From an uncultured Bacteroides sp. (GTDB lineage Bacteria > Bacteroidota > Bacteroidia > Bacteroidales > Muribaculaceae), in the NCBI GenBank assembly GCA_964560625.1, contig CAZLMV010000001.1, forward strand, positions 3,601 to 36,144: 32,544 nt of DNA, given 5' to 3'. The notes beneath the pieces were generated by a model. That model searched no databases. It was given only the letters and a program-made list of their open reading frames with translations, and was not told the DNA's origin. Shown piece by piece: positions 5,724-26,183 of this stretch. Within the stretch, counting starts at the first letter, position 1, and each line of letters opens with the position of its first letter. Both the position numbers and the translations under genes were made by a program.

Positions 5724-7196
5724 TTATTTTACAAACCTCTGAGCGCCGCGCACGGTCAGAATCACCAAAAAGAGCAGCGCCGCAATCAGTAGCAGGCCGT
5801 AAATCTCCTTGCATGAGACGATTAAGGCCTGCGCCTGAGCCGCGTCGATGAGCGACATGTCCGGCAGCCCGGCGGTGAGCATGGTGAGGTTCTTGGCCAT
5901 GACGTGGCGCAGGAGTTCGCCGATAATGGCCGGACCGAGCGTCGCGCCCATCACTGCCCCCGTGAAACCATTCACGACCAACGCCTGCGGAAACACCATG
6001 AAGGGCAACCCGCTTCGCACTATGGAGGTGAGAAACACAATGGAGATACTGACTGAGGCAAATCCGCGCATAAATAGCGGCAGGGCAAGCTGTTGCTTCT
6101 CAAGATTAAAGTCTATGTTGAAGTAAAACCACGCCAAATAAGCCGCTAAGAAAGCGAAGCCGATGATGCTCATGGGCAAATAGCCCCACTTGCGGCGCGC
6201 AAAAGTGACGTAAGTGAAGGCGCAACCGGCTAATATTCCGAAGAATACGTACCAGTTAAGGTCTATCAGGTTTGTCTCGTCAAAGCCGAGGATTGACGCC
6301 GCATAGGAATGTTCAATCACGTGCTCCGTGCCTAATAACGTGAAGAATATCAGGTTGATAACCACGGCAATTACTACTCTGCGGTTAGTCATGGCCGGCC
6401 AGGAGATGTAAGGATGCCGCAAATAGCCCGCGCGCACCAAGTTGATGGCCAAGCAAGCCAAGCCGATGAGCGACGCAACGCAGATTTCCCGCGACTCAAA
6501 CCAGTCGTAAAAATCGCCGTAGACACACACGAAAGTGAACGCCATCATCACGGCCGTCCAGAGCGCACCGCCGAGCCAGTCGATGCCCAAAAGAGGGATA
6601 AACATGTGTGGGCGCACGGGCCGAAAAATGGTCAGCACAAGGAGCATCATCAGCGCCAATGCGCCAATCATGATCAGGTGCATCAGCTGCCAGTCAAGGT
6701 GAAAAGCCGAGTAAATGGCCGCGATGCCGCTCAGCTGAATCACGGACTCCACGATGAGGTAGACATAACAGAAAAACACCGACATGTCGCGCGTCGGCGT
6801 AAGCCAGAGCTGGATGGTGGAATTGCACGCAAAAGTGGCCTGCATGCGGAAGAATCCCGCAATCAGACAGGTCACGACCAAGACGGCCACCGAGTCCGTT
6901 ATCGAGCAGATTATCAACGAGATAATCAACACGGCGGCACACACCAAGAGCTGCAAATAGGTGGAAAAGCGGAATTTGATGCGAAACATCACGGCGAAGT
7001 TGATTGCCAAGCCGATGAGCGAGGCATAACCCGCCATCAGGATATCCTCTTGCATCAATCCCGTAGTGCCGACCATGTCTGACGCCGCCGCAAGGTAGAG
7101 GCCGCCGGAAAACTGCACTATCAGGACGAAAAAGATGAATATCCAGGGCTTGAGCCGTGGTGCAACAAAATCTTTAACGTCTGGAATTTCAAACAT
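5724..7196 (-). CDS. Polytopic inner-membrane transporter of the efflux operon (EmrB/DHA2-MFS-like by position; about 12-14 TM segments)
   Basis: The 490-aa product is almost entirely hydrophobic helices. It is the last gene of a TolC-HlyD operon. I could not see the classical MFS motif A, so the family assignment is tentative. Confidence 0.6.
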   Translation of the reverse strand: MFEIPDVKDFVAPRLKPWIFIFFVLIVQFSGGLYLAAASDMVGTTGLMQEDILMAGYASLIGLAINFAVMFRIKFRFSTYLQLLVCAAVLIISLIICSITDSVAVLVVTCLIAGFFRMQATFACNSTIQLWLTPTRDMSVFFCYVYLIVESVIQLSGIAAIYSAFHLDWQLMHLIMIGALALMMLLVLTIFRPVRPHMFIPLLGIDWLGGALWTAVMMAFTFVCVYGDFYDWFESREICVASLIGLACLAINLVRAGYLRHPYISWPAMTNRRVVIAVVINLIFFTLLGTEHVIEHSYAASILGFDETNLIDLNWYVFFGILAGCAFTYVTFARRKWGYLPMSIIGFAFLAAYLAWFYFNIDFNLEKQQLALPLFMRGFASVSISIVFLTSIVRSGLPFMVFPQALVVNGFTGAVMGATLGPAIIGELLRHVMAKNLTMLTAGLPDMSLIDAAQAQALIVSCKEIYGLLLIAALLFLVILTVRGAQRFVK

Positions 7197-7209
7197 TTAC
7201 GTTGCCGTT

Positions 7210-8241
7210 TTATTTGATGACACATTCTGCATTCATTCCGGCGCGCAACTTGGCCATCTCCTCTGCGGAATTGGATTCGCTGAAACGGATGCGCACGGGC
7301 ACGCGCTGGCGCACCTTGACGAAGTTGCCCGATGAATTATCATGTGGCAGCGGCGACAGGGCGCTACCGGTGGCCGACGAGATGGACTCCACCGCGCCCT
7401 CAAATGTCACTCCGGGGATGGCGTCGACCTCAATCTCCACGGACGAGCCCGGAGCGATGTTTTTCAGCTGTGTTTCCTTATAATTAGCGGCCACCCAGAC
7501 GTCTCCGCTATCGATGATGGAGAGCAGCAGCTGGCCGGGCTGAATCAGTTGCCCCTCCTGAATATCCTTGCGGGAGCAGTAACCTGCACAGGGAGCGACG
7601 ATTGCGGTGTAAGAAAGGTTCAGCTCGGCAGTCTCCACCACGGCCTGCGCAAGCTCGATTCCGGCCTCCGATTGCGAGATGCGGCTGCGGTTGACGTCGA
7701 CCACCGATGACGTGGCCGATTTCTGTTGCGCCAAGGTCTGATAGCGTGCGCGTTTGGCCTCATAGTCAGTCTTAACGGCATCATATTCGCGGCGGGTCAC
7801 GGCCTCCTGCTCCAAGAGCTTTTCATAACGATTGAGGTCGGTCAACGCTTGCTCCATCAATACTTTAGCCTCTAAAATTGAAGCATCACTTACAGCTACG
7901 TTGGCCGCCGCAGAGCTGACCGATTGGTTGGCCACGGAGTGTCCGGCCAAGGCATTTTGGAGCTCGGCCTTTGCGCGCATAAGGTTGAGGCGAAGGTCTG
8001 AATCATCGATGATCACGAGGGTGTCGCCCTTGCTGACGGGCTGATATTCACTGAAGCGGATTTCCTTGATGTAGCCTTGCACGCGGCTGTTGACCGGTAC
8101 GATCTGCATCTTTACTTCGGCATTATCGGTAAATTCGCCGCCACTGAGATGAAAAAGGCGTGAGCAAATCCAGCATGCGGCGCCGATGATCACGAGCGCG
8201 CTGACGACGTAAGAAATCTGTTTTTTGGTACGGTATTTCAT
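7210..8241 (-). CDS. HlyD/EmrA-family membrane fusion (periplasmic adaptor) protein
   Basis: It has a single N-terminal TM, a biotinyl-lipoyl-like segment (QGYIKEIRFSEYQPVSKGDTLVIIDD), a long coiled-coil and a beta-barrel C-terminus. The start overlaps the tolC stop (ATGA at 8238-8241). Confidence 0.85.
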   Translation of the reverse strand: MKYRTKKQISYVVSALVIIGAACWICSRLFHLSGGEFTDNAEVKMQIVPVNSRVQGYIKEIRFSEYQPVSKGDTLVIIDDSDLRLNLMRAKAELQNALAGHSVANQSVSSAAANVAVSDASILEAKVLMEQALTDLNRYEKLLEQEAVTRREYDAVKTDYEAKRARYQTLAQQKSATSSVVDVNRSRISQSEAGIELAQAVVETAELNLSYTAIVAPCAGYCSRKDIQEGQLIQPGQLLLSIIDSGDVWVAANYKETQLKNIAPGSSVEIEVDAIPGVTFEGAVESISSATGSALSPLPHDNSSGNFVKVRQRVPVRIRFSESNSAEEMAKLRAGMNAECVIK

Positions 8242-9554
8242 ATTTTTCCTGACGTAAAAAGAAGTTTATAATAGCAATAAATAATGTTGATTTTGGCGTT
8301 AATGAGCTGCTGCTCAGCGTCAAGGCGCGAGTTTGCGGCATCGAGCATGTCGGTTATCAGCGCCATGTCGTTGCCGTAGCGCGTGGCCGTGGTCTGATAG
8401 TTGCGCAGGGCCAATTCCACGGCTTTTTCGCGTGAAATAAGCTCCTCATAGGCCTCCATGTATTTAATATGGTCGGCGCGCACCTCTAAGGACAGTTCCT
8501 CCGCGGCAGCTTGGAGCTCCTCTTGAGCTTTATGGGTGGCTACACGGCTCTGTGCCAACGATTTATTGGTCTTGAAGAGCGACGAGAGGTTATAGCTAAC
8601 GCCCAATCCCACATACCAATAGCTCAGGTTGCGGTTTATCGGCGGCACTTCCACGAGGATAGGGCCATCCATGGTCCATCCGGCCTGCAGGCCGATTTTA
8701 GGGAGCCGCTCGGCGCGAGTCAGTTTTTCGGCTCGTTGGCTGATATTCAGGCCGGTACGCGCCAATGCTAACTGCGGCGAATTCTCCTCGGCGCGGGTTT
8801 GCCACCATTCCTCGCCCTGCTGCGGCAGAGATTGCGCTAATATGGTCGAGTCCGGAAGTACCTGAGTATCAGCGGGAAGGCCTGCCAAGGTGGTAAGATT
8901 GGTGTTGAGGATGTCGAGCATATTGCTGATTCTCACCTGCTCGAGCTCGATGTTGGAAATCAGCAACTCGTAGCGAGTAATGTCGTTGCGCAGGGCCGTG
9001 CCTTGCTCATAGCGGGCTTGCATGTCGGTCAGCACGCGGCACGCGGCGGTGAGGTTACTGCTGATAACTTTCTGAAGATTAGAGTATTTGTAGAGATTGA
9101 GGTAGATGTCCGTGAGCCGAAAGCGGATAATGTTGCGCTGCAGGTCGGCCGATTGGCGCGCGCCCGTGGCCTTAAGTTCGGCCATGCGGATGCCTTCGGT
9201 CAGTGCGCCGCCGGTGTAGAGCGGCTGATTGACGTTGACTCCGAGGCCGGTGCCGAGGTGTGGAATCGGGGCGCGTTGATAGTCTGAGAAGTCGCGTGCG
9301 GTGGTGAATCCGTCGCCTATGTAGCTGACAGAGAGGGAGGCGGATATGTCAGGCAGGCGGTTTGCGCGCGCCGTGGCAATGGCTTTTTCCGCTTTTTCAA
9401 TGGCCGTGAGGGCCGGGCGGAGTTGCAAGGAGTTGGCCTCGGCCGACTCGAAAAGCTCACTCAAAGTGACCACCCGAGGCGACTGAGCCGAACACACTCC
9501 GCCGCTCAACAGGGCACCCAAGAGCAGCCCTGTGAGCAATCGATGATTGTTCAT
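8238..9554 (-). CDS. TolC-family outer membrane efflux protein
   Basis: It has a signal peptide and two repeated OEP-type alpha/beta halves. It is the first gene of the tripartite efflux operon. Confidence 0.85.
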   Translation of the reverse strand: MNNHRLLTGLLLGALLSGGVCSAQSPRVVTLSELFESAEANSLQLRPALTAIEKAEKAIATARANRLPDISASLSVSYIGDGFTTARDFSDYQRAPIPHLGTGLGVNVNQPLYTGGALTEGIRMAELKATGARQSADLQRNIIRFRLTDIYLNLYKYSNLQKVISSNLTAACRVLTDMQARYEQGTALRNDITRYELLISNIELEQVRISNMLDILNTNLTTLAGLPADTQVLPDSTILAQSLPQQGEEWWQTRAEENSPQLALARTGLNISQRAEKLTRAERLPKIGLQAGWTMDGPILVEVPPINRNLSYWYVGLGVSYNLSSLFKTNKSLAQSRVATHKAQEELQAAAEELSLEVRADHIKYMEAYEELISREKAVELALRNYQTTATRYGNDMALITDMLDAANSRLDAEQQLINAKINIIYCYYKLLFTSGKI

Positions 9555-9735
9555 GCTGAAACTAATGAATTTATGTGATTAATGAAGGGGAAGGAGGGAG
9601 GAAACGACGGGAGGGCCGCTCAGACGCGAGCGGTGCTCTTCCAGCTTTCCAAATGGCCCCAGCGATAGATGCAAGGGGCTGAGTGTTTGTGAGATAACAT
9701 AAATTATGCGGGCAGATTCTTTCTGAATTGCACTG

Positions 9736-9743
9736 CAAAGTTA
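9736..9743 (-). promoter_or_regulatory. -7 promoter box TAACTTTG for the efflux operon (long ~175-nt leader)
   Basis: The minus strand reads TAACTTTG. It is divergent from the 9859-9866 box. Confidence 0.5.
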
Positions 9744-9858
9744 CGAAAAAATCTTGACAATTTAAAACATCCATATACCCTCAAATCATTAGGAGGGGTG
9801 GGGCCGGGAGGTGTAATTTTACTCAAAATCGGGTATTTTGGGGCCGGGAAAGTCGGCG

Positions 9859-9866
9859 TAACTTTG
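9859..9866 (+). promoter_or_regulatory. -7 promoter box TAACTTTG for the imelysin/cytochrome cluster
   Basis: TAACTTTG lies 12-21 nt upstream of the candidate ATGs at 9878 and 9887. Confidence 0.55.
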
Positions 9867-9886
9867 CAGTGCAAAAAATGACCCAC

Positions 9887-11131
9887 ATGAAAAAAGTTAT
9901 TCTCACATTATTATTAGTGATTGGCGCGCTCACGGCGGCCGCGCAGGTCGACACCCTCGGCTATTCCCGCTTCCGCTTCGGCGGTTATGGCGAAATGCTT
10001 GGTCAGTTTATGGACTATGGCAGCAACCGCTTTGCGGGCACCTCGGAGGGGGCGCCTCGCGGCTATCGTGCGGCCGTGTCCATTCCGCGCTTCGTCCTCG
10101 CTTTTGACTATAAATTTAACTCCAAGTGGATTTTAGGCGCGGAGATTGAATTTGAAGCCGGCGGCGTCGGTTCGGCCGTAGAATTGGAAAATAGCGAGAA
10201 CGGCGAGTATGAAACCGAGATAGAAAAAGGAGGTGAAGTAGCACTCGAACAATTACACATAACTCGCCTGATTCATAGAGGAATAAACGTGAGGGTAGGC
10301 CACTTGATAGTCCCCGTCGGACTGACCAACGCGCACCATGAGCCGATCAACTTCTTCGGCCCGACGCGCCCGCAGGCTGAGACCTCGCTCCTCCCCTCAA
10401 CATGGCATGAAACGGGCTTAGAACTCTTCGGCTCCTTTGGTCGCGGATTCGACTGGCAGGCCATGATCGTGGCCGGACTCAACGCCAACGGCTTTGACCG
10501 CGATCAATGGATCATCGGGGGCACTCCCGGCTATTTTGAAGTGGATAATTTTACCTCCCCCGGCTATGTCGGCCGCCTTGATTATAGTGGCGTAAAAGGC
10601 CTCAGAACAGGCATTTCCGCCTACTATTGCCACGACACCGGGCGCAATTCCGATAAGGATCATTTCTACTCCTCCATTGGCCGCATACCCGTTTGGATTG
10701 CCACCTGGGACGCTCAATATCGCTCCAAATGGGTCACCGCCCGCGCCAATATTACCTTCGGCGGGGTAGGCAACTCAGCCGCCCTGAGCGATGCCAACCG
10801 CATGCTCTCCAATAAATCGCCCTACAGCCGACTTGTGCCTATTGCCAAAAACGCCTTTGGCGCCGGAGTCGAAGCGGGCGTTAACATCAAGAAATTCACG
10901 CCCTTTGCGCGCTATGAATACTATAATCCCCAATTCCGCGGTGAAAAGGGCCAGACCATGGACTCGCGCCTCGAAGTGAGCCAGTGGCAATTGGGTCTCA
11001 ACTGGTTTGCGCTCCCTAATTTGGTAGTGAAAGGCGCGTGGGTTTCTCGCCAAATCGGCGGCGGAAAATACAATAGCGAAAACGAATTCCAAATCGGCAT
11101 CGCATATATTGCCTGGTTTATTAAAAAGTAA
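9887..11131 (+). CDS. Predicted outer-membrane beta-barrel (porin-like) protein, first gene of the imelysin cluster
   Basis: The signal peptide is MKKVILTLLLVIGALTAAAQ. The sequence shows alternating amphipathic beta-strand patterning with aromatic girdle residues. The track ORF starts at a GTG (9869) that sits essentially on the predicted TSS, so I prefer the ATG at 9887 (9878 is also possible). Confidence 0.55.
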   Translation: MKKVILTLLLVIGALTAAAQVDTLGYSRFRFGGYGEMLGQFMDYGSNRFAGTSEGAPRGYRAAVSIPRFVLAFDYKFNSKWILGAEIEFEAGGVGSAVELENSENGEYETEIEKGGEVALEQLHITRLIHRGINVRVGHLIVPVGLTNAHHEPINFFGPTRPQAETSLLPSTWHETGLELFGSFGRGFDWQAMIVAGLNANGFDRDQWIIGGTPGYFEVDNFTSPGYVGRLDYSGVKGLRTGISAYYCHDTGRNSDKDHFYSSIGRIPVWIATWDAQYRSKWVTARANITFGGVGNSAALSDANRMLSNKSPYSRLVPIAKNAFGAGVEAGVNIKKFTPFARYEYYNPQFRGEKGQTMDSRLEVSQWQLGLNWFALPNLVVKGAWVSRQIGGGKYNSENEFQIGIAYIAWFIKK

Positions 11132-11148
11132 ATTATAACAGATTAGAT

Positions 11149-12222
11149 ATGAAGAAATTACTCTTATTTTCAGCTTTGGCAGTGGCGTTGACTGCCTGCA
11201 ATGAGTCTAACGAGCCGAAAAAGGCCGAAATTGATAGCGCCGTGATTGATTACACGGCCGAAAATGCCGACGCCTGGGGCAACTACATGGTCCAAGTGAG
11301 CTCCCTGCTTAAGGCCGACGCGCAGACGCTGATTGACTCCTGGACCACCGGGGGCTATGCTGCGCAATTCAAGGCCTTGGCGCCGTTTGACTGCGTCGAG
11401 CAGATGATTGACGGGTGTGCCGACATCGCCAACGAGGTCTGCACCGCCAAGATTGGCGACCCCTATAACCTCTACCTTTCCGGCGACACCAAGCGCGCCC
11501 TCTATGCCGTAGAATCCTGGTATTCATGGCATTCCCGCGAAGATTATGCGAACAATATCCTCTCCATCCGCAATAGTTTCTGTGGCTCGCTCGACGGCAC
11601 GGTTCACCCCGAATCGCTCGCCGCAATGATTGACCCCGCACTGAGTGCAGACGTCGCCACCGCCATTTCTGCCGCCGAATCAGCCATCTTGGCCATTCCG
11701 CAGCCCTTCCGCTCGAACATCACCTCCACTGAAAGTCGCATGGCCATGAACGCTTGCGCCGACCTCGAGGAAATCCTCTCCGTCAATCTCAAATCGGCCG
11801 CTCGCAAGCTCTCTGAGACGCAACTCCGCGCCATTGCTGACCGCTTTGTCGACGCTGTGGTGATTCCCACTTACACCGACCTTGCCGCTCGCAACGCTGC
11901 TCTGCATCAGTCAGTTACGGCCCTGCGCGACAATCCCTCCGACGCCGCTTTTGCCGCCGCCTGCTCCGCCTGGCTCGAAGCCCGCGAACCCTGGGAGAAG
12001 TCCGAGGCCTTCCTCTTCGGCCCGGTAGATGCTCTCGGCCTTGATCCGAACATGGATAGCTGGCCCTTGGACCAGGACGCCATTGTGCAAATCCTCTCCT
12101 CCGGCAATTTCTCCGGCCTGAGCGGCACGAGCGAGGCCGTGCAGAGTGTGCGCGGATTCCATACCCTCGAATTCCTCCTCTTCAAGGACGGCATGCCCCG
12201 CTTAACAATATTGAGTGAATAA
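11149..12222 (+). CDS. Imelysin-family (peptidase M75-like) lipoprotein
   Basis: It has a lipobox (LTAC) and an all-helical two-domain sequence. The family GxHxxE motif is present as GFHTLEFLLF (HxxE at 12160-12171). Its genomic partner is a DUF1111 di-haem protein. Confidence 0.8.
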   Translation: MKKLLLFSALAVALTACNESNEPKKAEIDSAVIDYTAENADAWGNYMVQVSSLLKADAQTLIDSWTTGGYAAQFKALAPFDCVEQMIDGCADIANEVCTAKIGDPYNLYLSGDTKRALYAVESWYSWHSREDYANNILSIRNSFCGSLDGTVHPESLAAMIDPALSADVATAISAAESAILAIPQPFRSNITSTESRMAMNACADLEEILSVNLKSAARKLSETQLRAIADRFVDAVVIPTYTDLAARNAALHQSVTALRDNPSDAAFAAACSAWLEAREPWEKSEAFLFGPVDALGLDPNMDSWPLDQDAIVQILSSGNFSGLSGTSEAVQSVRGFHTLEFLLFKDGMPRLTILSE

Positions 12223-13632
12223 ATGAATGCAATAATCAGATTCTTGGCCGCGTCGTCGTCGCTGTTGCTGCTCTCGGGCTGCGACGACGGCGGCCTTGAT
12301 TCGCTCTCCATCGAGATTCCGGAAGGGTATGAGCTCTCGGCGGGGACTTCGACGAATTTCCTCAACTCCTCCGTGGCCTATGATGCTGAGGCACCGTGGG
12401 TTAAGGGCGATTACCTGACGCGATTCGTGCGCGGCGACAGGCTCTATGACGACGTGCGCACCTCCTCCTCCGGCCAGGGCGGCGGCCTCGGTCCCGTCTA
12501 TGCCGGATATTCCTGTGGCAGCTGCCATCGCAACGCCGGGCGCACTCGCCCCGGTAACCTTGAAGGCTCCGGAAATTACGGCTTTTCCTCTATGTTAGTG
12601 TACGTTACGCGCAGAAACGGCGCCTTTTTCCGCGATTATGGCCGCGTTCTTCATGACCAAGCGATCTATGGCGTCGAAGCCGAAGGAAAACTCAAAGTCG
12701 ACTGGACCTACGAGCAATTCGCCTTCCCTGACGGCGAACCCTACGAACTTGCCACTCCGCATTACACCATCACCGACTGGTATGCCGACGACATAGCTCC
12801 CGAGGACCTTTTCTGCTCCGTGCGCATCCCCTTGCGCCACGTCGGCATGGGTCAGATGATGGCCCTTGACCCTACGGAAATCGAGGCCTTGGCCGCAAAG
12901 AGCAATTATCCCGAATGGGGCATCTCCGGCCGCTGCAACTACATCACCGAGCGCGGAGTGCGCCGGTTAGGACTGTCCGGCAACAAGGCCCAACACGCCG
13001 ATTTGACCGTAGAACTCGGCTTTTCCAGCGACATGGGCGTCACCAATAGCCGCTATCCGGAAGAGATTTGCGAGGGCCAACTCCAAATGTCGCAAGGCTC
13101 GATGATGGGCCTGACCTACGATCGCCTCGACATCTCCACCGAAGATATGGAAAACGTGGACCTCTACATGCAGAGCCTCGGAGTTCCCGCGCGCCGCGAT
13201 GTCAATGACCCGCAAGTGCGCCGCGGCGAGGCCGCCTTCTTTGAGGCGGGGTGTCACCTCTGCCATGTGACGACGCTCCACACGCGCCCGCGCGGCTCCA
13301 CTCTCCTTGCGGGCACTCAGCTCCCCTGGCTCGGCAATCAGACCGTCCACCCTTACAGCGACTTCCTGCTCCACGACATGGGGCCTGACCTTGATGACCA
13401 TTACCCCTCCGGACTCGCCGCCGGCAATGAGTGGCGCACGACTCCCCTCTGGGGCATCGGCCTGCAAGAAAAGGTCAATGGCCACACTTACTTCCTCCAC
13501 GACGGGCGCGCCCGCAACCTCACGGAGGCGATTATGTGGCATGGTGGCGAGGGACAGGCCTCGCGCAACAGATTCAAAAACATGGAGGCCGACAAGCGTC
13601 AGGCCCTCATCCGATTCCTTCAATCATTATGA
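12223..13632 (+). CDS. DUF1111-family di-haem cytochrome c lipoprotein (cytochrome c peroxidase-like / 'thiol oxidoreductase')
   Basis: It has a lipobox (LLSGC) and two CxxCH haem-binding motifs: CGSCH at 12514-12528 and CHLCH at 13252-13266. Other DUF1111-typical blocks are present (RTTPLWG, FLHDGRA). Confidence 0.85.
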   Translation: MNAIIRFLAASSSLLLLSGCDDGGLDSLSIEIPEGYELSAGTSTNFLNSSVAYDAEAPWVKGDYLTRFVRGDRLYDDVRTSSSGQGGGLGPVYAGYSCGSCHRNAGRTRPGNLEGSGNYGFSSMLVYVTRRNGAFFRDYGRVLHDQAIYGVEAEGKLKVDWTYEQFAFPDGEPYELATPHYTITDWYADDIAPEDLFCSVRIPLRHVGMGQMMALDPTEIEALAAKSNYPEWGISGRCNYITERGVRRLGLSGNKAQHADLTVELGFSSDMGVTNSRYPEEICEGQLQMSQGSMMGLTYDRLDISTEDMENVDLYMQSLGVPARRDVNDPQVRRGEAAFFEAGCHLCHVTTLHTRPRGSTLLAGTQLPWLGNQTVHPYSDFLLHDMGPDLDDHYPSGLAAGNEWRTTPLWGIGLQEKVNGHTYFLHDGRARNLTEAIMWHGGEGQASRNRFKNMEADKRQALIRFLQSL

Positions 13633-14834
13633 AAAAACTTCTACTTTCTTTCGCTTTAATTCTCAGTGGCTCAGTCGCTTCGGCTCAGTATGATTCAGAT
13701 AATGGAGTGGTCTCCATTGCCGACGAGCGAGGGTTTATTTTCCAGTCCAAGAGCGGCGACTTCGTGTTCAAGCCTTACCTCTTGGTGCAGACGTCGGCCA
13801 ATTTCAATTGGTATGACGACGCCGGCTTGGATCCCGCTTATAATCAGGACAATGTGGCCAACAGCGGCTTTGCCATCCCCTATGCGGTGCTCGGATTCAC
13901 GGGCAAAGCCTTCGGGATTGTCAACTTCAATCTCTCCATCAATGCTGCCGGGTCGGGTGGGGCGATCCTCCAGCAGGCCTGGGCCGACATTTGCCCGCGC
14001 CCGGAGGTGGGGGTGAAGATCGGTAAGTTCAAAACTCCCTTCACTCATGCTTATCTGACCACTCTCGGCGAGACCCTTTTCCCCGTAATGCCCACGTCGC
14101 TAACTGCCTCAGTGATTATGCCTTACTCGCTCAATGCCGTCACTCCGCATATCGGCACGGGCTTTGACCTCGGAGTGGAGGTCCATGGCCTCGTGGCCAA
14201 CCGCTTTGGCTATCAAGCGGGGATTTTTAACGGCACCGGCGCCAGCATTAATGTAGCCAACAAAACCCTCAGCGACGACTGGCACATCCCCTCGCTGCTC
14301 TATGCCGGTCGACTGACCTGGCAACCCTATGGCGCCATGCCGGCCACCCAGGGCGACCCGCGCCGACTGACCATGAACAAGATGCTCGTGGGCCTGAGCG
14401 CGTCCATGAACGTTGAAAGCGAAAATGAGAGCACCAACGACCTGCGCATGGGTTTGGAATGGAGCTGGGTGCATAATCGCTGGTACTTCGGCGCCGAGGC
14501 TTACTGGATGCACGTAGGCTTCACTCGCCGCCAGAAAATTGACCGCTCCTTCAACTATTTTGGGGGCTACGTTCAGGCCGGCTGGTTTTGCTCTGACCGT
14601 GTGCAAATCGTTGGCCGCTACGACCTTTTCGAGCGCAATTCCACCTCCAAAGGGGGCTTGCTGAACATGCCCGCCATCGGCTGCAACTGGTTTTTCCCGA
14701 AAATTAACCTCAAGCTCCAGGGCATGGCGCAATTTACCGGTCGCACCGGCCATGCCCGCCAAATGGACCGCGACGAGGATAACCTTGGCCTGGCCACATG
14801 GTCAGCCGTAATCATGGCTCAATATGCGTTTTAA
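13629..14834 (+). CDS. Porin-like outer-membrane beta-barrel (OprO/P-like fold suspected)
   Basis: The ATG at 13629 overlaps the upstream stop (ATGA). The signal peptide is MKKLLLSFALILSGSVASAQ. The protein shows beta-strand periodicity and ends in the OMP-type aromatic residues ...AQYAF. The longer track ORF (from 13431) runs inside the previous gene. Confidence 0.6.
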   Translation: MKKLLLSFALILSGSVASAQYDSDNGVVSIADERGFIFQSKSGDFVFKPYLLVQTSANFNWYDDAGLDPAYNQDNVANSGFAIPYAVLGFTGKAFGIVNFNLSINAAGSGGAILQQAWADICPRPEVGVKIGKFKTPFTHAYLTTLGETLFPVMPTSLTASVIMPYSLNAVTPHIGTGFDLGVEVHGLVANRFGYQAGIFNGTGASINVANKTLSDDWHIPSLLYAGRLTWQPYGAMPATQGDPRRLTMNKMLVGLSASMNVESENESTNDLRMGLEWSWVHNRWYFGAEAYWMHVGFTRRQKIDRSFNYFGGYVQAGWFCSDRVQIVGRYDLFERNSTSKGGLLNMPAIGCNWFFPKINLKLQGMAQFTGRTGHARQMDRDEDNLGLATWSAVIMAQYAF

Positions 14835-15510
14835 GTGGATTTTGCCGCTCTTGGCCCTCTGCAGTTGCGACGAAGGGCGCATCTGGCCGGAGGAGGTTGC
14901 CGACTCTGCGTCCGAGGGGCTGACGGCGCGGGTGGAAATCGCCGATGCCGTCGGGGCCGACCGCTGGTTCAGCGGTTATTCGCTCGCCGTGGCCGGCTTT
15001 GCCCCCGGAAGTGAATATGCGCTGATTAGCAAGAATATAGAGCTCACGGAGGAGGGTTCGGCCTCGGTTGCGCTCACGGGGATTCCCGCGGAAGTGGAGA
15101 GCGTGGAGCTCTGCATCATTGACCGCCTGCGCCGACGCGTCGCCTCGTTTGAGTCCGTCCCCATGGCCTCCTCTGAGGTGACTCTCAGCTCCGTCGGCGC
15201 CGATTTTTCGCCCGAGCAAGTGATTCAGACTGAGGTGTTTAACACCACCTGCATCAACTGCCACGGCGGCGCCTCCTTCTCCGCCGCCGGACTGAACCTT
15301 ACCCGCGGCCATTCCTTCGAGGAACTCATCGGCGTGACCTCCGTGAAAAATCCGCAAATGCAGCGCGTCTGCCCCGGCGACCCCGACCGCAGCCTCCTCT
15401 ATCAAATTTTGGTCGGGCAGGACTCCAAGGAGTGGAATTATGACCATTCCGTGGAAATCACGGCCTCCGAGCGTTTGGATTTAATAAAAAATTGGATAAT
15501 TGCGCAATAA
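14824..15510 (+). CDS. Lipoprotein with a C-terminal single-haem cytochrome c domain (PSCyt1/'planctomycete cytochrome c'-like)
   Basis: It has a lipobox (LALCSC) and CINCH (CxxCH) at 15250-15264, in the context FNTTCINCHGG...LNLT...CPGDPDRSLLYQ. The start overlaps the preceding gene by 11 nt. Confidence 0.6.
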   Translation: MRFKWILPLLALCSCDEGRIWPEEVADSASEGLTARVEIADAVGADRWFSGYSLAVAGFAPGSEYALISKNIELTEEGSASVALTGIPAEVESVELCIIDRLRRRVASFESVPMASSEVTLSSVGADFSPEQVIQTEVFNTTCINCHGGASFSAAGLNLTRGHSFEELIGVTSVKNPQMQRVCPGDPDRSLLYQILVGQDSKEWNYDHSVEITASERLDLIKNWIIAQ

Positions 15511-16628
15511 TGACACTGTCGAAATCGTTTTTTAAGATAATGAACAGAAATATCAGTCATATGACTTTATCATATAACGACGCTTTGGCCGACACGGCTC
15601 TTTGCGGCGACCAACTTCATTGCATTATTACCCCCTCTGCCGGCCTAAGGTATGCTGACCAGGTCCGCGCGGTTTGTGAGGCGATAAGTCATCTGGAAGA
15701 ATATTATAAGATGACCCCGATTTTCAAGCGCTATTTCCTCAGCGACATTGCCAATCAGGCGTCGCTTTTGCCTGAGGATGAGCCTTGTGCGGTGTCCGTG
15801 ATTCAGCAGCCGCCTCTAAATGGCAGCAAGGTCGTGGTGTGGGTGGTCATGGAGCGAGATGCCGACTTCCGGCGCGAGGCCGACGGCGTGTGGGCCGACT
15901 CCAAAGGGCGCATTATCCAGGGAGATATGGAGCCCGCCGGCGGCGATTCGGCCGAGGAGACGCGCCGCTATTTGCGCCGCTTTTCCGAGGTCTTGACCGC
16001 AAGAGGCGGCTCGTTGGCAGACCATTGTCTGCGTACATGGTTTATGGTCCACGACGTTGACCGCAATTATGGCGGAGTGGTGCGCGGCCGCAACGAAGTC
16101 TTTGCCGAGCAGGGACTTAAGGAGCATTTCATTGCCTCCACGGGCATCGGCGGCTCGCCGGAAAAGTCGCTCGTAGCCTTCAACGCCATTGCTGATCTTT
16201 CTGTTAAACCCGAGCAAATCACCTATCTGAAAGGGGCCTCACACCTGAATCCCACCATCGAATATGGCGTGGCCTTTGAGCGCGCCACTGCCGTGGATTA
16301 TCCCGATTATCGCAAGGTCTACGTCTCCGGCACGGCGAGCATTGACAATAAAGGTCAGGTGGTTGCCGTGGGCGACATTGAGCGCCAAACCGAGCGGATG
16401 CTCGAGAATATTGAGGTCCTTCTCCGCGAGGCCGGCTGCGAGCTCACTGACGTGATGAGCTTCATCATTTACCTGCGCGATATTGCTGACTATGAGGCAG
16501 TAAAGTCGGTGTTTGACTATCGGCTTCCCTGCGCGCCAAAGGTGCTCCTTTTAGCGCCGGTTTGCAGGCCGCAATGGTTGGTGGAAACGGAGTGTATTGC
16601 CATTCGCCCTCATAATGCCTCGCGCTAA
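15510..16628 (+). CDS. RidA/YjgF (endoribonuclease L-PSP) family protein with a long N-terminal extension
   Basis: The C-terminal ~125 aa match the RidA pattern (VYVSGTASID..G.V...DIERQTERMLENIEVLLREAG..L.DV....IYL.D..DY......ETECIA). The start is uncertain: TTG 15492, ATG 15510 (TAATG overlap with the previous stop) or ATG 15540. Confidence 0.6.
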   Translation: MTLSKSFFKIMNRNISHMTLSYNDALADTALCGDQLHCIITPSAGLRYADQVRAVCEAISHLEEYYKMTPIFKRYFLSDIANQASLLPEDEPCAVSVIQQPPLNGSKVVVWVVMERDADFRREADGVWADSKGRIIQGDMEPAGGDSAEETRRYLRRFSEVLTARGGSLADHCLRTWFMVHDVDRNYGGVVRGRNEVFAEQGLKEHFIASTGIGGSPEKSLVAFNAIADLSVKPEQITYLKGASHLNPTIEYGVAFERATAVDYPDYRKVYVSGTASIDNKGQVVAVGDIERQTERMLENIEVLLREAGCELTDVMSFIIYLRDIADYEAVKSVFDYRLPCAPKVLLLAPVCRPQWLVETECIAIRPHNASR

Positions 16629-18228
16629 GTTGCTCCATTTGTCTCTGCTGCTGATGATTATCGGCGGCTGCTTGACGTGGCTCACCTCCGTGCGCGGTTC
16701 CGTGCATCTCACTCCCGGAGTGGAGATGCACGATTTTATCGACTCTGAGGGCGAACTGCGGAAGTTGCCTTTCTCCCTGACCCTCAAGGAGTTTCAGACG
16801 GATTATTACCCCGGCATGTCCTTCCCGCGCGATTTCCGCTCGATCCTGAGCGTGGATGGCCGCGACGTGGAGATTTCTATGAATAAGATTGGTCGCGTGG
16901 GCGCCTGGCGGATCTATCAGCAGTCGTTTGACGGCCGCGGCGGCTCCGTCGTGGAGCTGGTGCGCGACCCCTGGGGAATCCTTGTGGTTTACCTTGGATT
17001 CGCACTCTTTGCTATTGCCGGATTGCCGATGCTTTTCGGCCGTAAAGCCTTGTCTATTTGCGCGTTAACCGTTGGCCTTGGTGCCATGGCCGCGCCGATT
17101 AACGAGGAGCAGCAAGTGGTGTTCAATGGTCGCGTCGTGCCGTATGCCACCGTGGCGTCCGAGCTGACCTTCAAACTCACCGGCAGTCAGAGCGTTGGCG
17201 GCATGAACCCCTCGCAGTTCGTCTATTCGCTGATGGAGTATCCGCAGCTCTGGGCCGAAAAGCCGTTTTTGAAGACCAAGGCGGGTTATGTCTCCCCCGC
17301 GTCGCTCTATGACGCTGACGGTCAATACATTCCGCAGCTGAAATATCGAGGCGGCGAGGGGAAAGACGACGCCGAATTGCTACGCATCGACGAAAAAATC
17401 GCCCTCTTGGGTCAGCTTTGGCAAGGGGAACTCTTCACCCCCGCGCCGCCCGAAAGTCAGCGCTCGCAGGCCTCCATACGCGCCGAGGTGATTTACGTTA
17501 AGATTCAGCCCGTCAAGTGGTTTTTCATGCTTGTGCTGACCCTCGGATTGCTGAGCATGATATGGAGCCGATTGGCCCGACGTTCGGCCATTGAGGCCTT
17601 AGTTTTGGCTGCGGGAATCTTTGCATGGCGCTGGTGGATAGCGGGTTATTGTCCCGTGGTCGGCACCGGCCAGGTGATGTTTTTCACCTCCGTTTGCCTC
17701 TGTGGTTGCGCCGTCGGGGTGGGGCGCAAATATCCTTTTGCGGCGGCTCTGGCGCTCGTGATGGCCGGATTTACCGCCCTAATCTCCTGGCTCAATGTCA
17801 AAAATCCGTCAATGACGCCCCTGATGCCGGTGCTCAACTCCCCCTGGCTGTCGATTCATGTCTCGCTCGTGATGATTGCCTATGCGCTGTTAGCCATGGT
17901 CAGTTTTCTCTCCTTGGCGTCGCTTTTCCGCCGACGCTTCCTCGTTCCGGCGCAAAAACTGCTTCCCATCGGGGTCTATTTCCTCGGCCTCGGAATCATT
18001 GTCGGCGCTATGTGGGCCAACGTTTCCTGGGGCCGCTACTGGGGCTGGGACCCAAAGGAAACCGCCGCCCTGATAACCTTCATAGCCTATAGCCTCCCCC
18101 TCCACCAATGGATCAAACCCCTAAAATCCCCCCGCCCCAAAGCCATCTACCTAACCGCCGCCTTCACAACCATCCTCCTAACCTACCTCGGCGTCAACTA
18201 CCTCCCCTCCCTCCACTCTTACCAATGA
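16615..18228 (+). CDS. ccsBA: Fused CcsBA (ResB-like + CcsA) system II cytochrome c synthase
   Basis: The Trp-rich haem-handling WWD motif WGRYWGWDPKE is at 18028-18060. The N-terminal region is ResB-like (FSLTLKEFQTDYYPG...RDFRS...YQQSF) and there are multiple TM helices. The ATG at 16615 overlaps the end of the RidA-like gene. Confidence 0.85.
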   Translation: MPRAKLLHLSLLLMIIGGCLTWLTSVRGSVHLTPGVEMHDFIDSEGELRKLPFSLTLKEFQTDYYPGMSFPRDFRSILSVDGRDVEISMNKIGRVGAWRIYQQSFDGRGGSVVELVRDPWGILVVYLGFALFAIAGLPMLFGRKALSICALTVGLGAMAAPINEEQQVVFNGRVVPYATVASELTFKLTGSQSVGGMNPSQFVYSLMEYPQLWAEKPFLKTKAGYVSPASLYDADGQYIPQLKYRGGEGKDDAELLRIDEKIALLGQLWQGELFTPAPPESQRSQASIRAEVIYVKIQPVKWFFMLVLTLGLLSMIWSRLARRSAIEALVLAAGIFAWRWWIAGYCPVVGTGQVMFFTSVCLCGCAVGVGRKYPFAAALALVMAGFTALISWLNVKNPSMTPLMPVLNSPWLSIHVSLVMIAYALLAMVSFLSLASLFRRRFLVPAQKLLPIGVYFLGLGIIVGAMWANVSWGRYWGWDPKETAALITFIAYSLPLHQWIKPLKSPRPKAIYLTAAFTTILLTYLGVNYLPSLHSYQ

Positions 18229-18234: not shown

Positions 18235-19368
18235 TTAGAGGGGTTTGATGAAGGAGCGGCGGCGTTTGTGTTGCTCGTAGTCGAAGTATTCCCATTGCGA
18301 CTGGACGTTGGTGTTGGTTTCCAGCTCGGGGTTGGTTTCGGCGGCGATGAATCCGCATTTCTGGAACGACGGAATCATGTTTTCGAAGAGCAGGGCGTTG
18401 ACTCCCTTGCCTTGATATTCCGGCTTGATGGCCACGAGCATCAGATCGACATAGTCGGTCTTGCCGAATTTCAGGGCCTTGAGGAGCGGATACCACCCGA
18501 AGGGAAGGAGTCGGCCGCGAGATTTTTGCAGCGCGCGGCTCAGCGAGGGCACGCTGATGCCTACGCCGACGAGGTTGTCCTCCTTATCAACAATCACGCA
18601 GACGCCGTCAAGGCGAATCAGCCCCAAGTACATGTCAATGTAATGGTCAATCTGGCGCGGAGTCAGCGGCGAATAGCCGTAGAGTTTGTCGTAAGCCTCG
18701 TTGATCACCTCAAACAGGGCGTGGCCATAACGTTCGGCAAGGAGCTTGCGCGAGGTCAGCTTGACCGTGTGCAGGCCGAAGCGCTTGCGCACAATCTCGG
18801 CCACGCGGCGCATCTTTTCCGGTATCTCATCAGGCACTTTCACCAAGAATTCCACCCAGTCGGCCTCTTTTTGGAAGCCGAGGCGCTCCATGTGTTTGGG
18901 ATAGTAGGGGTAGTTATAAATCGTGGCCATGGTGCCGAGGCGGTCAAAGCCTTCAATGAGCATTCCTTCATAGTCCATGTCGGTGAATCCGAGCGGACCC
19001 ACGAGGTGGTCCATCCCTTTTTCGCGTCCCCAGGCGCTGACCGTGTCAAACAGGGCGTCGACAACTTCCTCGTCGTCAATAAAGTCGACGAATCCGAAGC
19101 GGGCATCCTTGCGGCCGGTGCGCTCATTGACCGTGGAATTGATGATTCCGGCAATGCGGCCCACGGGTTTGCCGTCGCGATAGGCCATCCAGCAGCTACA
19201 TTCGCAGAAGTCAAAGGCCGGGTTGCCTTCGGGGCGCAGGGTGTTGACGTCGTCGCTGACCAACGGGGGCACGTAGCAGTCGTTGTCTTTGTAAAGGTCA
19301 ATGGCGAAGTCTACGAATTTGGTGAGTTCCTTCTTTGTGAGGGGTATCTGTTTAATTTCTACTGACAT
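18235..19368 (-). CDS. Two-domain GNAT-like acyl-CoA N-acyltransferase, substrate unknown
   Basis: A GNAT motif-A-like segment VAIKPEYQGKGVNALLFE lies in the C-terminal half. The N-terminal half is also acyltransferase-like (RIAGIIN...ARFGFVDFIDD). It is the last gene of the asnC operon. Confidence 0.55.
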   Translation of the reverse strand: MSVEIKQIPLTKKELTKFVDFAIDLYKDNDCYVPPLVSDDVNTLRPEGNPAFDFCECSCWMAYRDGKPVGRIAGIINSTVNERTGRKDARFGFVDFIDDEEVVDALFDTVSAWGREKGMDHLVGPLGFTDMDYEGMLIEGFDRLGTMATIYNYPYYPKHMERLGFQKEADWVEFLVKVPDEIPEKMRRVAEIVRKRFGLHTVKLTSRKLLAERYGHALFEVINEAYDKLYGYSPLTPRQIDHYIDMYLGLIRLDGVCVIVDKEDNLVGVGISVPSLSRALQKSRGRLLPFGWYPLLKALKFGKTDYVDLMLVAIKPEYQGKGVNALLFENMIPSFQKCGFIAAETNPELETNTNVQSQWEYFDYEQHKRRRSFIKPL

Positions 19369-19374
19369 GGTCTT

Positions 19375-20109
19375 TTAGGGATGATTGGTTACGATGACGG
19401 CGGCGAGGGCGGCCACCATGAGCGTCAGCGCCGTGATGATATAAATATAGAAGCGTGAGGTTGAGCCGCCGTGGAGGGCTACCTGGAGCTGCTGCACCGT
19501 GCGGTAAGGGTTCGGGCCGACGCATTTTTCGGCCACGGAGCGCAGATGGGGGTTCGGCTCGGGGCAGGCATCGAGAGCCTGCAGAAGGACGTGGCCAAAG
19601 TTACGGATATCTTCCGTAGTGTCAGCCACTTCCAACACGTTTTTCTGGTCAAAACCCACGTCGATGAGCTTGAGGTTGCGAATCTTCTCGGTAAAGATGA
19701 TCGACGAGGCCTTGATCGGGTGGTGGACAATATGGTTGGTCTGGATGTAATCAATGGCGTCAGGCACGCAGCGGGCTATTTTCTTGACGATATCCTCGGT
19801 CACTTCGCCGCGGGCTATGAGCTTTTCCAACGAGTCGCCATAGACGTCGTCGGTGATGATACACATGCCCAATCCGGGCACCTCCTCTAAGTCATTAATC
19901 ATAATGATATGGGCGTGGGCGAGGTTATATCTCACCTCAAACTCGCGGTTGAGCATGGATTGATATTCGGGGTTGTCGCGATACTCAGGTTTGAGGGTTT
20001 TGAGCATCACCCACTTACCGAACTTCTTGCCGGTGTAGACGTCATAGAAGTCCTCGCTCCATTCGGGCAGGAGCTCCAGCTCGGTCCATTTGTCCTTAGG
20101 GTCTGTCAT
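19375..20109 (-). CDS. Membrane-anchored protein-kinase-like protein with degenerate catalytic loop (predicted pseudokinase)
   Basis: Kinase-fold landmarks are present: beta3 Lys (VMLKTLK), alphaC Glu (LNREFEV) and hinge (IITDDVYGDSL). The catalytic loop reads IVHHPIKASSI instead of HRDLKxxN (HHP at 19717-19725). A DFG-like IDVGF follows. There is no Gly-rich loop and no APE segment, and the protein ends in a C-terminal TM anchor. Confidence 0.5.
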   Translation of the reverse strand: MTDPKDKWTELELLPEWSEDFYDVYTGKKFGKWVMLKTLKPEYRDNPEYQSMLNREFEVRYNLAHAHIIMINDLEEVPGLGMCIITDDVYGDSLEKLIARGEVTEDIVKKIARCVPDAIDYIQTNHIVHHPIKASSIIFTEKIRNLKLIDVGFDQKNVLEVADTTEDIRNFGHVLLQALDACPEPNPHLRSVAEKCVGPNPYRTVQQLQVALHGGSTSRFYIYIITALTLMVAALAAVIVTNHP

Positions 20110-20576
20110 ATGTTAGGGGGAGGGAGTATGGGGATTTCGCGGTCAATGCTGGAATCCAGCGATATGAGGGTTTCGGTGCCGGTCACTCCGGGAATCATCT
20201 GGATGCGGTCGTTGAGCAGTTGCATCAGGTGCTCATTGTCGCGGGCAAAGAGCTTGATGAGCATCGTGTAAGGCCCGGTGGTGTAATGACATTCAACCAC
20301 TTCGGGGATGTTTTGCAGATGAGGCACGGCGTCACGATACATTGCGCCCCTTTCGAGGTTCACGCCAATGTAAGTGCAGGTGGTGAATCCGAGGAATTTC
20401 GGGTTGACGTTATAGCCGGAGCCGGTGATGACGCCCAAGTCGATCATCCGCTGGATGCGCTGATGGATTGCGGCACGGCTGACGCCACATTCCGCGGCGA
20501 CATCTTTTGAGGGTATTCGCGCGTTGCGAATGACGATGTTTAATATCTTTTTGTCTAAGGAATCAAGCAGTTCCAT
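20106..20576 (-). CDS. Lrp/AsnC-family transcriptional regulator
   Basis: It has the N-terminal HTH (LDKKILNIVIRNARIPSKDVAAECGVSRAAIHQRIQRM) and a C-terminal RAM/ligand domain. I chose the ATG at 20576 because the -7 box at 20601-20608 excludes the TTG at 20603. The stop overlaps the next start (ATGA at 20106-20109). Confidence 0.88.
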   Translation of the reverse strand: MELLDSLDKKILNIVIRNARIPSKDVAAECGVSRAAIHQRIQRMIDLGVITGSGYNVNPKFLGFTTCTYIGVNLERGAMYRDAVPHLQNIPEVVECHYTTGPYTMLIKLFARDNEHLMQLLNDRIQMIPGVTGTETLISLDSSIDREIPILPPPNI

Positions 20577-20596
20577 AATGTAATTCATAAAAAAAC

Positions 20597-20632
20597 GTTG
20601 CAAAAGTAGCTATTTTTGCTGACTTTTGCAAC
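20597..20632 (-). promoter_or_regulatory. asnC promoter (-7 box TACTTTTG, 20601-20608) embedded in an 11-bp perfect inverted repeat (candidate operator)
   Basis: gttgcaaaagt (20597-20607) and acttttgcaac (20622-20632) are exact reverse complements. The left arm overlaps the TAnnTTTG box. Confidence 0.5.
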
Positions 20633-24162: not shown

Positions 24163-24938
24163 ACTTCCGTGGATATTTCGCCGAGGGCGCCCGCTTGGGC
24201 ATTGACGGCGGTTTGCACTTTGATGAAGTCAACGGGCGCGCTAAGATGGAATTCCGTCCATTGCTTTTGGGTGTCAGAGCCGGAATTATCCACGTAGCCC
24301 CAGGGGTAAGGCTGGTGGTTCCAGCGGCCGTTTTCCTCCACGGAAAGTGAGGGGAGGAGAGTGCCGCTCAGGGTGTAGGAGTCGGCCGCGATCCATGCCG
24401 GATAGTAATAATCTTGCTTATGGAAGGAGGGAACGTAGGCAATCTCGCCGCTATTGCCCTGATTATCAGTCCATTTTACAGGGCTTTTCGGCTCGGCGGG
24501 GCGATAGTAGGTGATTTGATAGTTGGCGATGGTGCCGGCTTCTTGGCTGTGGGGCAGTTCAACCCAGACGCCGTCGTCGGGCAGGCCGTTGCCGTTTGCG
24601 TCGGTCATGGCGTAGACTATTCCCGGCTCGTTGGAGCCCGCGAAGTTGTTGCCTTTGATGGCGAAGTTTTTGACGCTGTGGCCCGGGTCAAAGATGATGT
24701 ATCCGCCGAAGCCGCCTAAGGAGACGAATTTTTCCTCGGCGAGGCGCTCTTCGGCCCAGAGGATAGCCTCTTCGGGGGTGGTGGCGGTCATCCCTTCGTT
24801 GATGAATTGGCCGGGCGCAGGAGTGTAGTTTAGCACGCGAAATTCGCCGCGCTCGCGCCCGGATTCGGTCGGGTCATCCGTGCTGCAAGAGGCTAATAGG
24901 ACGCAACCTAAGGCTAAAAGGAGGGTGGATTTTTTCAT
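24141..24938 (-). CDS. Surface lipoprotein of unknown function in the B12 operon
   Basis: It has a lipobox (LLASCS), is 265 aa and is tightly packed between the DUF4465-like gene and the BtuG-like gene. Confidence 0.55.
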   Translation of the reverse strand: MKKSTLLLALGCVLLASCSTDDPTESGRERGEFRVLNYTPAPGQFINEGMTATTPEEAILWAEERLAEEKFVSLGGFGGYIIFDPGHSVKNFAIKGNNFAGSNEPGIVYAMTDANGNGLPDDGVWVELPHSQEAGTIANYQITYYRPAEPKSPVKWTDNQGNSGEIAYVPSFHKQDYYYPAWIAADSYTLSGTLLPSLSVEENGRWNHQPYPWGYVDNSGSDTQKQWTEFHLSAPVDFIKVQTAVNAQAGALGEISTEVCGFKEL

Positions 24939-24941
24939 GTC

Positions 24942-26178: not shown

Positions 26179-26183
26179 CACCG

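Follow-up and report, generated by a model that had tools for sequence, protein, structure and literature searches.

We analysed a window of 32,544 nucleotides (nt; the whole stretch of DNA considered here) from an uncultured Bacteroides sp. that GTDB places in the Muribaculaceae, and within it a cluster of seven genes on the plus strand between positions 9878 and 18228. A preliminary description of this DNA had reported an imelysin and di-haem DHOR core accompanied by two barrels and a third c-haem protein; this composition is confirmed, and on re-reading the sequence we found all of the coordinates and motifs given for it correct. The seven genes are translationally coupled, with a single predicted promoter: the junctions between consecutive genes measure +17, 0, -4 (ATGA), -11, -1 (TAATG) and -14 nt, and terminator-like sites are not in excess within the cluster. 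As set out below, the window holds the Muribaculaceae orthologue of a recorded but mechanistically uncharacterised locus, and no new system. The features of the cluster, with protein lengths in amino acids (aa), are as follows.

9817..9840, plus strand: candidate operator, an imperfect palindrome TTTTACTCAAAATCGGGTATTTTG, found as a match to a position weight matrix (PWM); overlaps the -33 region
9859..9866, plus strand: Bacteroidetes-type -7 box TAACTTTG, read in the sequence, its position conserved in 63 orthologous promoters
9878..11131, plus strand: gene 1, secreted 417-aa outer-membrane beta-barrel, a divergent OprO/P-like porin
11149..12222, plus strand: gene 2, circularly permuted PIBO-type imelysin (Peptidase_M75) lipoprotein, GFHTLE at 12154-12171 (HTLE at 12160-12171)
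12223..13632, plus strand: gene 3, di-haem DHOR/DUF1111 lipoprotein, CGSCH (12514-12528) and CHLCH (13252-13266)
13629..14834, plus strand: gene 4, OprO/P-family porin
14824..15510, plus strand: gene 5, mono-haem cytochrome c lipoprotein, beta-sandwich at the N-terminus and helical haem domain at the C-terminus, CINCH at 15250-15264
15510..16628, plus strand: gene 6, two-domain protein with a RidA fold, FkbO/Hyg5 chorismatase type, cytoplasmic, 372 aa
16615..18228, plus strand: gene 7, short fused CcsBA (system II cytochrome c synthase), 537 aa, WGRYWGWDPKE at 18028-18060

Conservation across Bacteroidales

One genome per species was scanned with the DHOR protein, and the best 80 loci were retained from the 494 relatives that this gave; the seven window proteins were run by tblastn on these 80 loci, and 66 of them had enough flank to be judged. 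Co-conservation had been set beforehand as the test on which a self-contained seven-gene module could fail, and it came out clearly in the module's favour: all seven genes are present in the same order in 63 of 66 species-level loci, drawn from at least four families, while the flanks differ. The cluster occurs in Muribaculaceae, Bacteroides (B. xylanisolvens, B. faecalis, B. fluxus, B. congonensis and B. reticulotermitis), Phocaeicola (P. plebeius and P. mediterraneensis), Parabacteroides, and Prevotella- and Alloprevotella-labelled genomes. The incomplete loci are those of Parabacteroides gordonii and B. cutis, which lack gene 7, and of P. abscessus, which lacks gene 6. In four relatives with gene 5 identities of 51-79% the seven genes are kept within different flanks, and the homologues of genes 5, 1 and 3, where named, belong to Muribaculaceae, Duncaniella and Muribaculum, which places the window in a Muribaculaceae genome. 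Identities of the orthologues to the window proteins were as follows.

Gene 3: 72-93%, the best conserved of the set
Gene 4: 60-93%
Gene 1: 55-93%
Gene 2: 46-88%
Gene 6: 44-82%
Gene 5: 31-79%
Gene 7: 31-78%

Across orthologues spanning this range of 31-93% identity the CxxCH motifs are unchanged. The cluster is a standard Bacteroidales arrangement, nearly universal among the Bacteroidales sampled. The view that the imelysin/DHOR core had been expanded in one particular lineage is refuted. This common arrangement holds the solved PIBO-type imelysin, and the locus has already been listed as induced by iron depletion and in colitis. The preliminary description was accurate in what it described and overstated the novelty, and its interpretation is partly supported.

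Correspondence to BT2473-BT2482 of B. thetaiotaomicron

On the strength of its gene content, of annotation names and of the loci in close Bacteroides relatives, we equate the cluster with BT2473-BT2482 of B. thetaiotaomicron, a locus whose listed parts are a fimbrillin, CcsA, hypotheticals, a porin, a thiol oxidoreductase, a peptidase M75 and a helix-turn-helix (HTH) regulator (2023 transcriptome, PMC10434189). Expression of the locus rose 62- to 324-fold in iron-depleted medium and 14- to 33-fold in a colitis model, and the nrfHA-linked ccsA/ccsB operon of the same species was 30- to 36-fold down in low iron (PMC10434189). That study gives regulation only and calls for functional work; it is the sole paper on the locus that we found, and an incomplete literature check returned no functional study of BT2475, BT2478 or BT2479. 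Within that search, the earlier statement that the system is uncharacterised holds.

The three lipoproteins

Family profile searches recovered most of the families that had been proposed from the sequence (M75, DHOR, L-PSP, and ResB with Cytochrom_C_asm) and matched gene 4 to Porin_O_P, while PSCyt1 stayed below its cut-off. Gene 2 matches PF09375 (Peptidase_M75) with E=7.6e-54 and 183.7 bits against a cut-off of 23.5. Its residues 239-348 match profile positions 2-115, so that the C-terminus of the protein corresponds to the N-terminus of the profile, as in a circular permutation, and residues 26-351 are colinear with residues 7-358 of PDB 3n8u (E=5.7e-113). We assign gene 2 as the orthologue of PIBO, the circularly permuted imelysin of B. 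ovatus. The PIBO study restricts permuted imelysins to Bacteroidales and describes a DUF1111 di-haem protein as the near-constant partner of imelysins, the operons of such pairs being under Fur control in P. aeruginosa and V. cholerae (PMC3143127). The metals bound by M75 domains are Cu, Fe and Zn (PMC9174327).

The partner of the imelysin, gene 3, matches PF06537 (DHOR/DUF1111) with E=1.3e-60 and 205.8 bits against a cut-off of 22, and both of its CxxCH motifs (C98/C101/H102 and C344/C347/H348) do not vary across 43 sequences; NCBI names its homologues 'thiol oxidoreductase'. Searches of the PDB with the single sequence and with a profile gave no usable relative, the one hit being a weak match to a di-haem subunit resembling cytochrome c peroxidase (CCP) at E=0.15. 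The AlphaFold2 model of gene 3 is unusable, with a predicted local distance difference test score (pLDDT) of 39, probably because the alignment is shallow and its members are 77-93% identical. In two Phocaeicola mediterraneensis loci (L070 and L072, ~8792-11425) genes 2 and 3 form a single 878-aa imelysin-DHOR open reading frame (ORF), and in two others (L073 and L091) they are separate; the single ORF may be a genuine fusion or may stem from a sequencing error.

Gene 5 always lies between genes 4 and 6. It scores 17.9 bits against PSCyt1 (PF07635; E=0.0047), below the cut-off of 22, and in 27 orthologues C15-D16, C143xxC146-H147, H208 and W224 are invariant. In its AlphaFold2 model (pLDDT 83) residues 33-124 fold into a beta-sandwich of seven strands, and residues 130-227 make up the helical haem domain. 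Foldseek searches with this model returned only generic beta-sandwich modules for the N-terminal domain, with template modelling (TM) scores of at most 0.26, and left the haem domain unmatched. In three Prevotella-like loci (L062 12622-13056, L068 12682-13110, and L071) the orthologue has only 142-146 aa, lacks the beta-sandwich and begins its haem domain straight after the lipobox; because these three loci dispense with the sandwich, we take the tethered haem domain to be the essential part of the protein.

In nearly every orthologue of all three lipoproteins, acidic residues stand just after the lipid cysteine. The lipobox of gene 2 ends in LTAC and is followed by NESNE (CNESNE in the window, CS(D/N)DD-type among orthologues), that of gene 3 ends in SGC and is followed by DDGGLD (C(D/E)xDG(L/I)D), and gene 5 has the pattern CD(E/D)G. 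Charge governs surface display in the lipoprotein export signal of Bacteroidetes, and the signal peptide of BT_2479 has been used as a high-efficiency secretion and surface-display tag. Because the acidic residues match this export-signal pattern, the three lipoproteins are predicted to be exposed on the surface or on vesicles, which points away from the periplasm.

The two barrels

Gene 4 matches PF07396 (Porin_O_P) over profile positions 2-370 of 370, with E=5.7e-46 and 157.9 bits. Gene 1, which heads the cluster in every locus, is below threshold for the same family (E=0.033; 13.9 bits against a cut-off of 20.9), and its direct comparison with gene 4 by hhalign gave a weak match (probability 7%). 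PF07396 is, however, matched by 27 of 31 gene 1 homologues, the best at 8.7e-8, and because of these matches we assign gene 1 as a divergent barrel of gene 4's family.

A chorismatase-like protein and a probably dedicated cytochrome c synthase

Gene 6 had been called RidA-like. The fold and the L-PSP domain stand, as the Ribonuc_L-PSP match (E=5.7e-17) shows, but that match is confined to residues 275-371 of 372, and a plain single-domain RidA (~125 aa) is excluded by the length of 372 aa and by a score of 54 against the TIGR00004 (RidA) cut-off of 106. The protein instead resembles the FkbO/Hyg5 chorismatases: residues 116-369 match TIGR04444 (FkbO/Hyg5) with E=6.4e-16, at 58.5 bits far under the cut-off of 325, and a profile of gene 6 orthologues matches Hyg5 (5ag3) with E=1.8e-13 over 260 residues (profile positions 108-366). 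Its VCR..WL(I/V)E.E motif (VCR..WLIEME in the window) aligns with VCRSDLLVEIE of Hyg5, and among the Hyg5 positions to which C352 and E359 align is the cysteine replaced in entry 5a3k. No signal peptide was found in gene 6. We regard gene 6 as a putative two-domain chorismatase-like enzyme, at best a distant branch of the FkbO/Hyg5 family. Directly 3' of gene 7, nine scan loci, eight of them distinct and all from one Muribaculaceae subclade, carry a 262-aa DAHP-synthase-like gene (L013 13540-14328; L014 13786-14580; also L020, L029 and L033-L036), which overlaps gene 7 by 4 nt in L013 and L035 and is not in the window. Identification of this downstream gene as a KDO8P synthase was rejected, with 48 bits against ~170 bits as DAHP synthase.

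Gene 7 combines matches to ResB (E=1.8e-13) and Cytochrom_C_asm (E=5.1e-31), aligns with the CcsBA structures 25vk (5.1e-51) and 7s9y (5.8e-40), and scores 135.5 against TIGR03144 (CcsB), below the cut-off of 187.6. Its WWD motif and four histidines (in LLHLS, WLSIHVS, LPLHQW and SLHSY) are aligned to 25vk and 7s9y; by these alignments gene 7 is a CcsBA with the WWD motif and all of the catalytic histidines, probably with a dedicated role. The protein starts at the histidine-bearing helix (16615-16700), without the two N-terminal transmembrane helices. A long form with the two extra helices (compared in L065 14592-14850, L012, L014 and L020) occurs in Bacteroides, Phocaeicola and some Muribaculaceae, so that short and long forms are both found within Muribaculaceae. 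Because the solved CcsBA of B. thetaiotaomicron is merely 35-52% identical to the cluster gene 7 of close Bacteroides, the lyase of the Bacteroides cluster is a separate paralogue, and the suggestion of a private haem lyase is supported.

Promoter, candidate operator and regulator

The pattern TAnnTTTG is not enriched in the window (17 occurrences against 12.8 expected), and this count alone is insignificant; almost every orthologous locus, however, has such a box 12-83 nt (mostly 27-40 nt) 5' of the start codon of gene 1, and because its position is conserved across orthologous promoters the -7 box of the window is credible. A PWM built from 63 distinct orthologous promoters anchored on the -7 box describes a conserved element, with the consensus aatTtT.C..AtTTtTggGTATTgc, at a fixed distance from the box in the 63 loci. 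Its GTATT core is 93-100% conserved, 22-26 nt 5' of the -7 box, and the element is often a clean palindrome, such as ATACCTA-N5-TAGGTAT. The palindrome of the window scores 23.3 bits, the runner-up site in the window 12.2. Its centre lies ~30 nt 5' of the -7 box, that is ~42 nt 5' of the likely transcription start, a position typical of an activator that touches RNA polymerase, and we regard it as a candidate operator. A 10-nt direct repeat, GGGGCCGGGA, stands at 9800-9809 and 9840-9849, either side of the palindrome.

A regulator gene with hemerythrin and GerE (LuxR-type) domains is divergent beside gene 1 in ~16 loci and lies within a few kb of the cluster in many Bacteroides. Where such genes are not adjacent, 14 of 18 loci have a copy of the palindrome in the upstream 250 nt, at or above the 99th percentile of background; copies of the element were also located in L085 (7261), L018, L065 (7296 and 4608) and L087 (6069 and 17391). 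CdhR-type regulators have this hemerythrin and LuxR architecture and are themselves iron-induced. In species of the B. thetaiotaomicron group, fldA (flavodoxin) and DUF2023 stand just 5' of gene 1 on the same strand (L065 6045-6977; L051, L052, L054, L059, L079, L080 and L083). In B. thetaiotaomicron these are the iron-starvation genes BT0517 (fldA) and BT0516 (DUF2023).

The remainder of the window

A 16-nt perfect inverted repeat, GCACTGCAAAGTTACG / CGTAACTTTGCAGTGC, lies at 9730-9745 and 9857-9872 and gives the two divergent promoters an identical core. The leftward promoter would serve a TolC/HlyD/MFS-like efflux operon (5724-9554, minus strand). We rejected this operon as a conserved exporter part of the system, since the adjacency is kept in the closest relatives only. 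The genes at 18235-20603 (minus strand) are likewise conserved only in these relatives. Further downstream, a cobalamin riboswitch (26006-26200, minus strand; 71.8 bits) heads an operon at 21119-25898 (minus strand) that encodes DUF4465, an unassigned 265-aa protein, DUF5074 and a TonB-dependent receptor. The riboswitch marks this as a B12 uptake locus separate from the cluster, and an iron-related role for the receptor operon was rejected. The gene at 26314-27318 (minus strand) encodes 334 aa with a VKOR (vitamin K epoxide reductase) domain; its product may be an oxidoreductase linked to disulfides or to quinones. The GC content falls from ~56% to 37-43% at 29000-32544, which may be foreign DNA and holds a 568-aa ORF (30746-32452, plus strand) and several TAnnTTTG boxes.

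Discussion

We favour the reading that iron starvation induces the operon and that its products acquire iron at the outer membrane or on the cell surface, and we give it a probability of roughly 0.55. Acquisition of a metal is supported because the B. thetaiotaomicron counterpart is strongly induced by iron starvation; between the two functions first proposed, metal acquisition fits this induction and respiratory electron transfer becomes the weaker option. In our model, iron scarcity would cause a regulator to turn the operon on from the conserved palindrome; this regulator is probably a CdhR-type hemerythrin-LuxR protein whose gene lies elsewhere in the genome. The cluster's CcsBA would then attach haem to both cytochromes in the periplasm, and with a synthase of their own these cytochromes could be made independently of the nitrite-reductase-linked ccs genes, which in B. 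thetaiotaomicron are repressed ~30-fold in low iron. The acidic residues after the lipid cysteine would route the three lipoproteins to the surface or to vesicles, on or near the two barrels, where the haem proteins may alter the redox state of environmental iron. In the manner of EfeB and EfeO, Fe(II) might be oxidised and Fe(III) captured at the GxHxxE site of the imelysin; the reverse, a reduction of Fe(III), is also possible. The product would pass through the porins to inner-membrane transporters encoded elsewhere, and the chorismatase-like enzyme may provide a shikimate-derived aromatic acid that aids the iron step.

Several points weigh against this reading. The orthology to BT2473-BT2482 is argued from gene content, annotation names and close Bacteroides relatives, and it is through this orthology that iron regulation is extended to the window operon. 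The window contains no hemerythrin-GerE regulator gene, and neither the cluster nor its scanned neighbours contain an inner-membrane iron permease (EfeU/Ftr1 or FeoB). Three c-haems are costly to make under iron shortage, the porin family of the barrels is anion-selective and offers no obvious route for Fe ions, and the redox chemistry could run in either direction. The DHOR protein, moreover, has the low-scoring model and the lack of a solved PDB relative noted above, and the surface exposure of the lipoproteins is predicted from sequence alone.

Other explanations account for parts of the same evidence. The cluster could serve peroxide defence at the surface or in the periplasm, with the DHOR protein acting as a cytochrome c peroxidase and the mono-haem lipoprotein as its donor, to protect the envelope during inflammation. 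Pfam calls DHOR a putative peroxidase, the weak likeness of gene 3 to a CCP-like di-haem subunit is at motif level, the B. thetaiotaomicron counterpart is raised in colitis, where oxidants rise, and a hemerythrin-domain regulator could sense O2 or oxidants besides iron. We nevertheless consider peroxide defence unlikely: iron depletion alone gave the induction in vitro, the imelysin with its metal-site motif, the two porins and the chorismatase-like enzyme would have no obvious role, and no inner-membrane input of electrons is encoded. Somewhat less likely again is a system that takes up haem or a metal other than iron (Cu, Zn or Mn), in which the DHOR protein might post-translationally modify or load the imelysin. 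The M75 domain of EfeM can bind Cu and Zn besides Fe, Bacteroidales need external haem, with haem-uptake operons co-induced with the B. thetaiotaomicron locus, and the single ORF formed by genes 2 and 3 in two Phocaeicola assemblies would suggest a tight functional pair. Against this, iron depletion is the only signal tested so far, and the cluster encodes neither a TonB-dependent receptor nor an HmuY-type haem binder.

The rival that fits least is a porin-cytochrome conduit serving respiration or the transfer of electrons out of the cell. It would explain why barrels and haem lipoproteins are encoded together, the latter with a predicted surface location, yet the cluster has three haems in total, its OprO/P-type barrels of 400 aa are unlike MtrB-like sheaths, it encodes no periplasmic multihaem partner or quinol dehydrogenase, and the iron starvation that induces the B. 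thetaiotaomicron counterpart goes with repression of respiratory enzymes. We hold such a conduit to be very improbable.

The iron-acquisition reading can be taken a step further, to a doubtful but more specific proposal in which small-molecule synthesis is coupled to redox chemistry at the surface, giving gut Bacteroidales an iron uptake independent of both siderophores and TonB. Gene 6 would make a hydroxybenzoate-type acid that is released as an iron ligand, reductant or shuttle, joined in one Muribaculaceae subclade by the translationally coupled DAHP-synthase paralogue. The complex of iron and ligand would be processed at the surface by the imelysin together with the di-haem and the mono-haem cytochrome, the anion-selective OprO/P-type porins would admit it, and the hemerythrin-LuxR iron sensor, acting at the palindrome, would govern the whole system. 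Classical siderophores are not known from Bacteroidales.

Bacteroidales dominate the mammalian gut, and how they supply themselves with inorganic iron during inflammation is partly understood; the locus is among the most strongly iron-starvation-induced in B. thetaiotaomicron. The cluster offers testable ideas: surface c-type cytochromes in a cytochrome-poor anaerobe, a haem lyase paralogue reserved for them, a co-transcribed chorismatase-like enzyme, and a candidate operator and regulator. As far as we searched the literature, there is no earlier description of the chorismatase-like gene, of its link to a DAHP synthase, of export signals on the cytochromes or of the shared operator.

Comparison with known systems places the cluster among several partial relatives. 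With PIBO (3n8u/3oyv), gene 2 shares the permutation that places GxHxxE at the C-terminus. The proteobacterial operons PA4370-PA4373 and VC1264-VC1266 likewise pair an imelysin with a di-haem DUF1111 protein, but as described they have two imelysin-like proteins and no porins, extra cytochrome, chorismatase-like gene or CcsBA (PMC3143127). MtrCAB also encodes an outer-membrane barrel with a surface haem lipoprotein, whereas the window has three haems against ~20, a small OprO/P-type barrel and no periplasmic multihaem wire, and its B. thetaiotaomicron counterpart is iron-starvation-induced and would have no respiratory function. EfeUOB/M resembles the cluster in joining an M75 metal-binding protein to a haem peroxidase-type partner for iron uptake outside the cytoplasm. 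The window cluster, in contrast, has no EfeU/Ftr1 permease or EfeB-type peroxidase, its haem partner is a c-type di-haem DHOR protein, and its components are lipoproteins with outer-membrane barrels; the EfeB peroxidase is a different kind of haem protein from DHOR.

Individual components have relatives of their own. The FkbO/Hyg5 chorismatases (4bps, 5ag3) share with gene 6 the two-domain RidA-type architecture and the motifs RxW, Y..GR.E.F, TGIG, F.R.T, SGTAS and VCR...L(I/V)E.E, but gene 6 has ~40 extra N-terminal residues, scores below the NCBIfam cut-off, and would lie in an iron-starvation operon whereas the others belong to a polyketide or pigment pathway. The CcsBA proteins of Helicobacter hepaticus (7s9y) and B. 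thetaiotaomicron (25vk) are fused ResB-CcsA proteins with the WWD motif and four histidines, as is gene 7; they have 828-942 aa against its 537 aa, and gene 7 has a shorter periplasmic domain, is without the first two transmembrane helices and represents a cluster-linked paralogue in Bacteroides. The CdhR-type regulators (P. gingivalis PG1236-37, BT0519-20) share the hemerythrin and GerE architecture of the cluster-flanking gene, whose promoter has the palindrome in common with the cluster promoter; the regulator gene is not in the window, the likeness is one of architecture, and the motif is a candidate. The closest counterpart, BT2473-BT2482, differs in also having a fimbrillin-family gene and an adjacent HTH regulator, neither of which is in the window, and in being known by transcript levels only; gene 7 of the window, for its part, is the short form. 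It has the same porin, 'thiol oxidoreductase' (DHOR), peptidase M75, CcsA and hypotheticals, and close Bacteroides species carry the same seven genes in the same order as the window.

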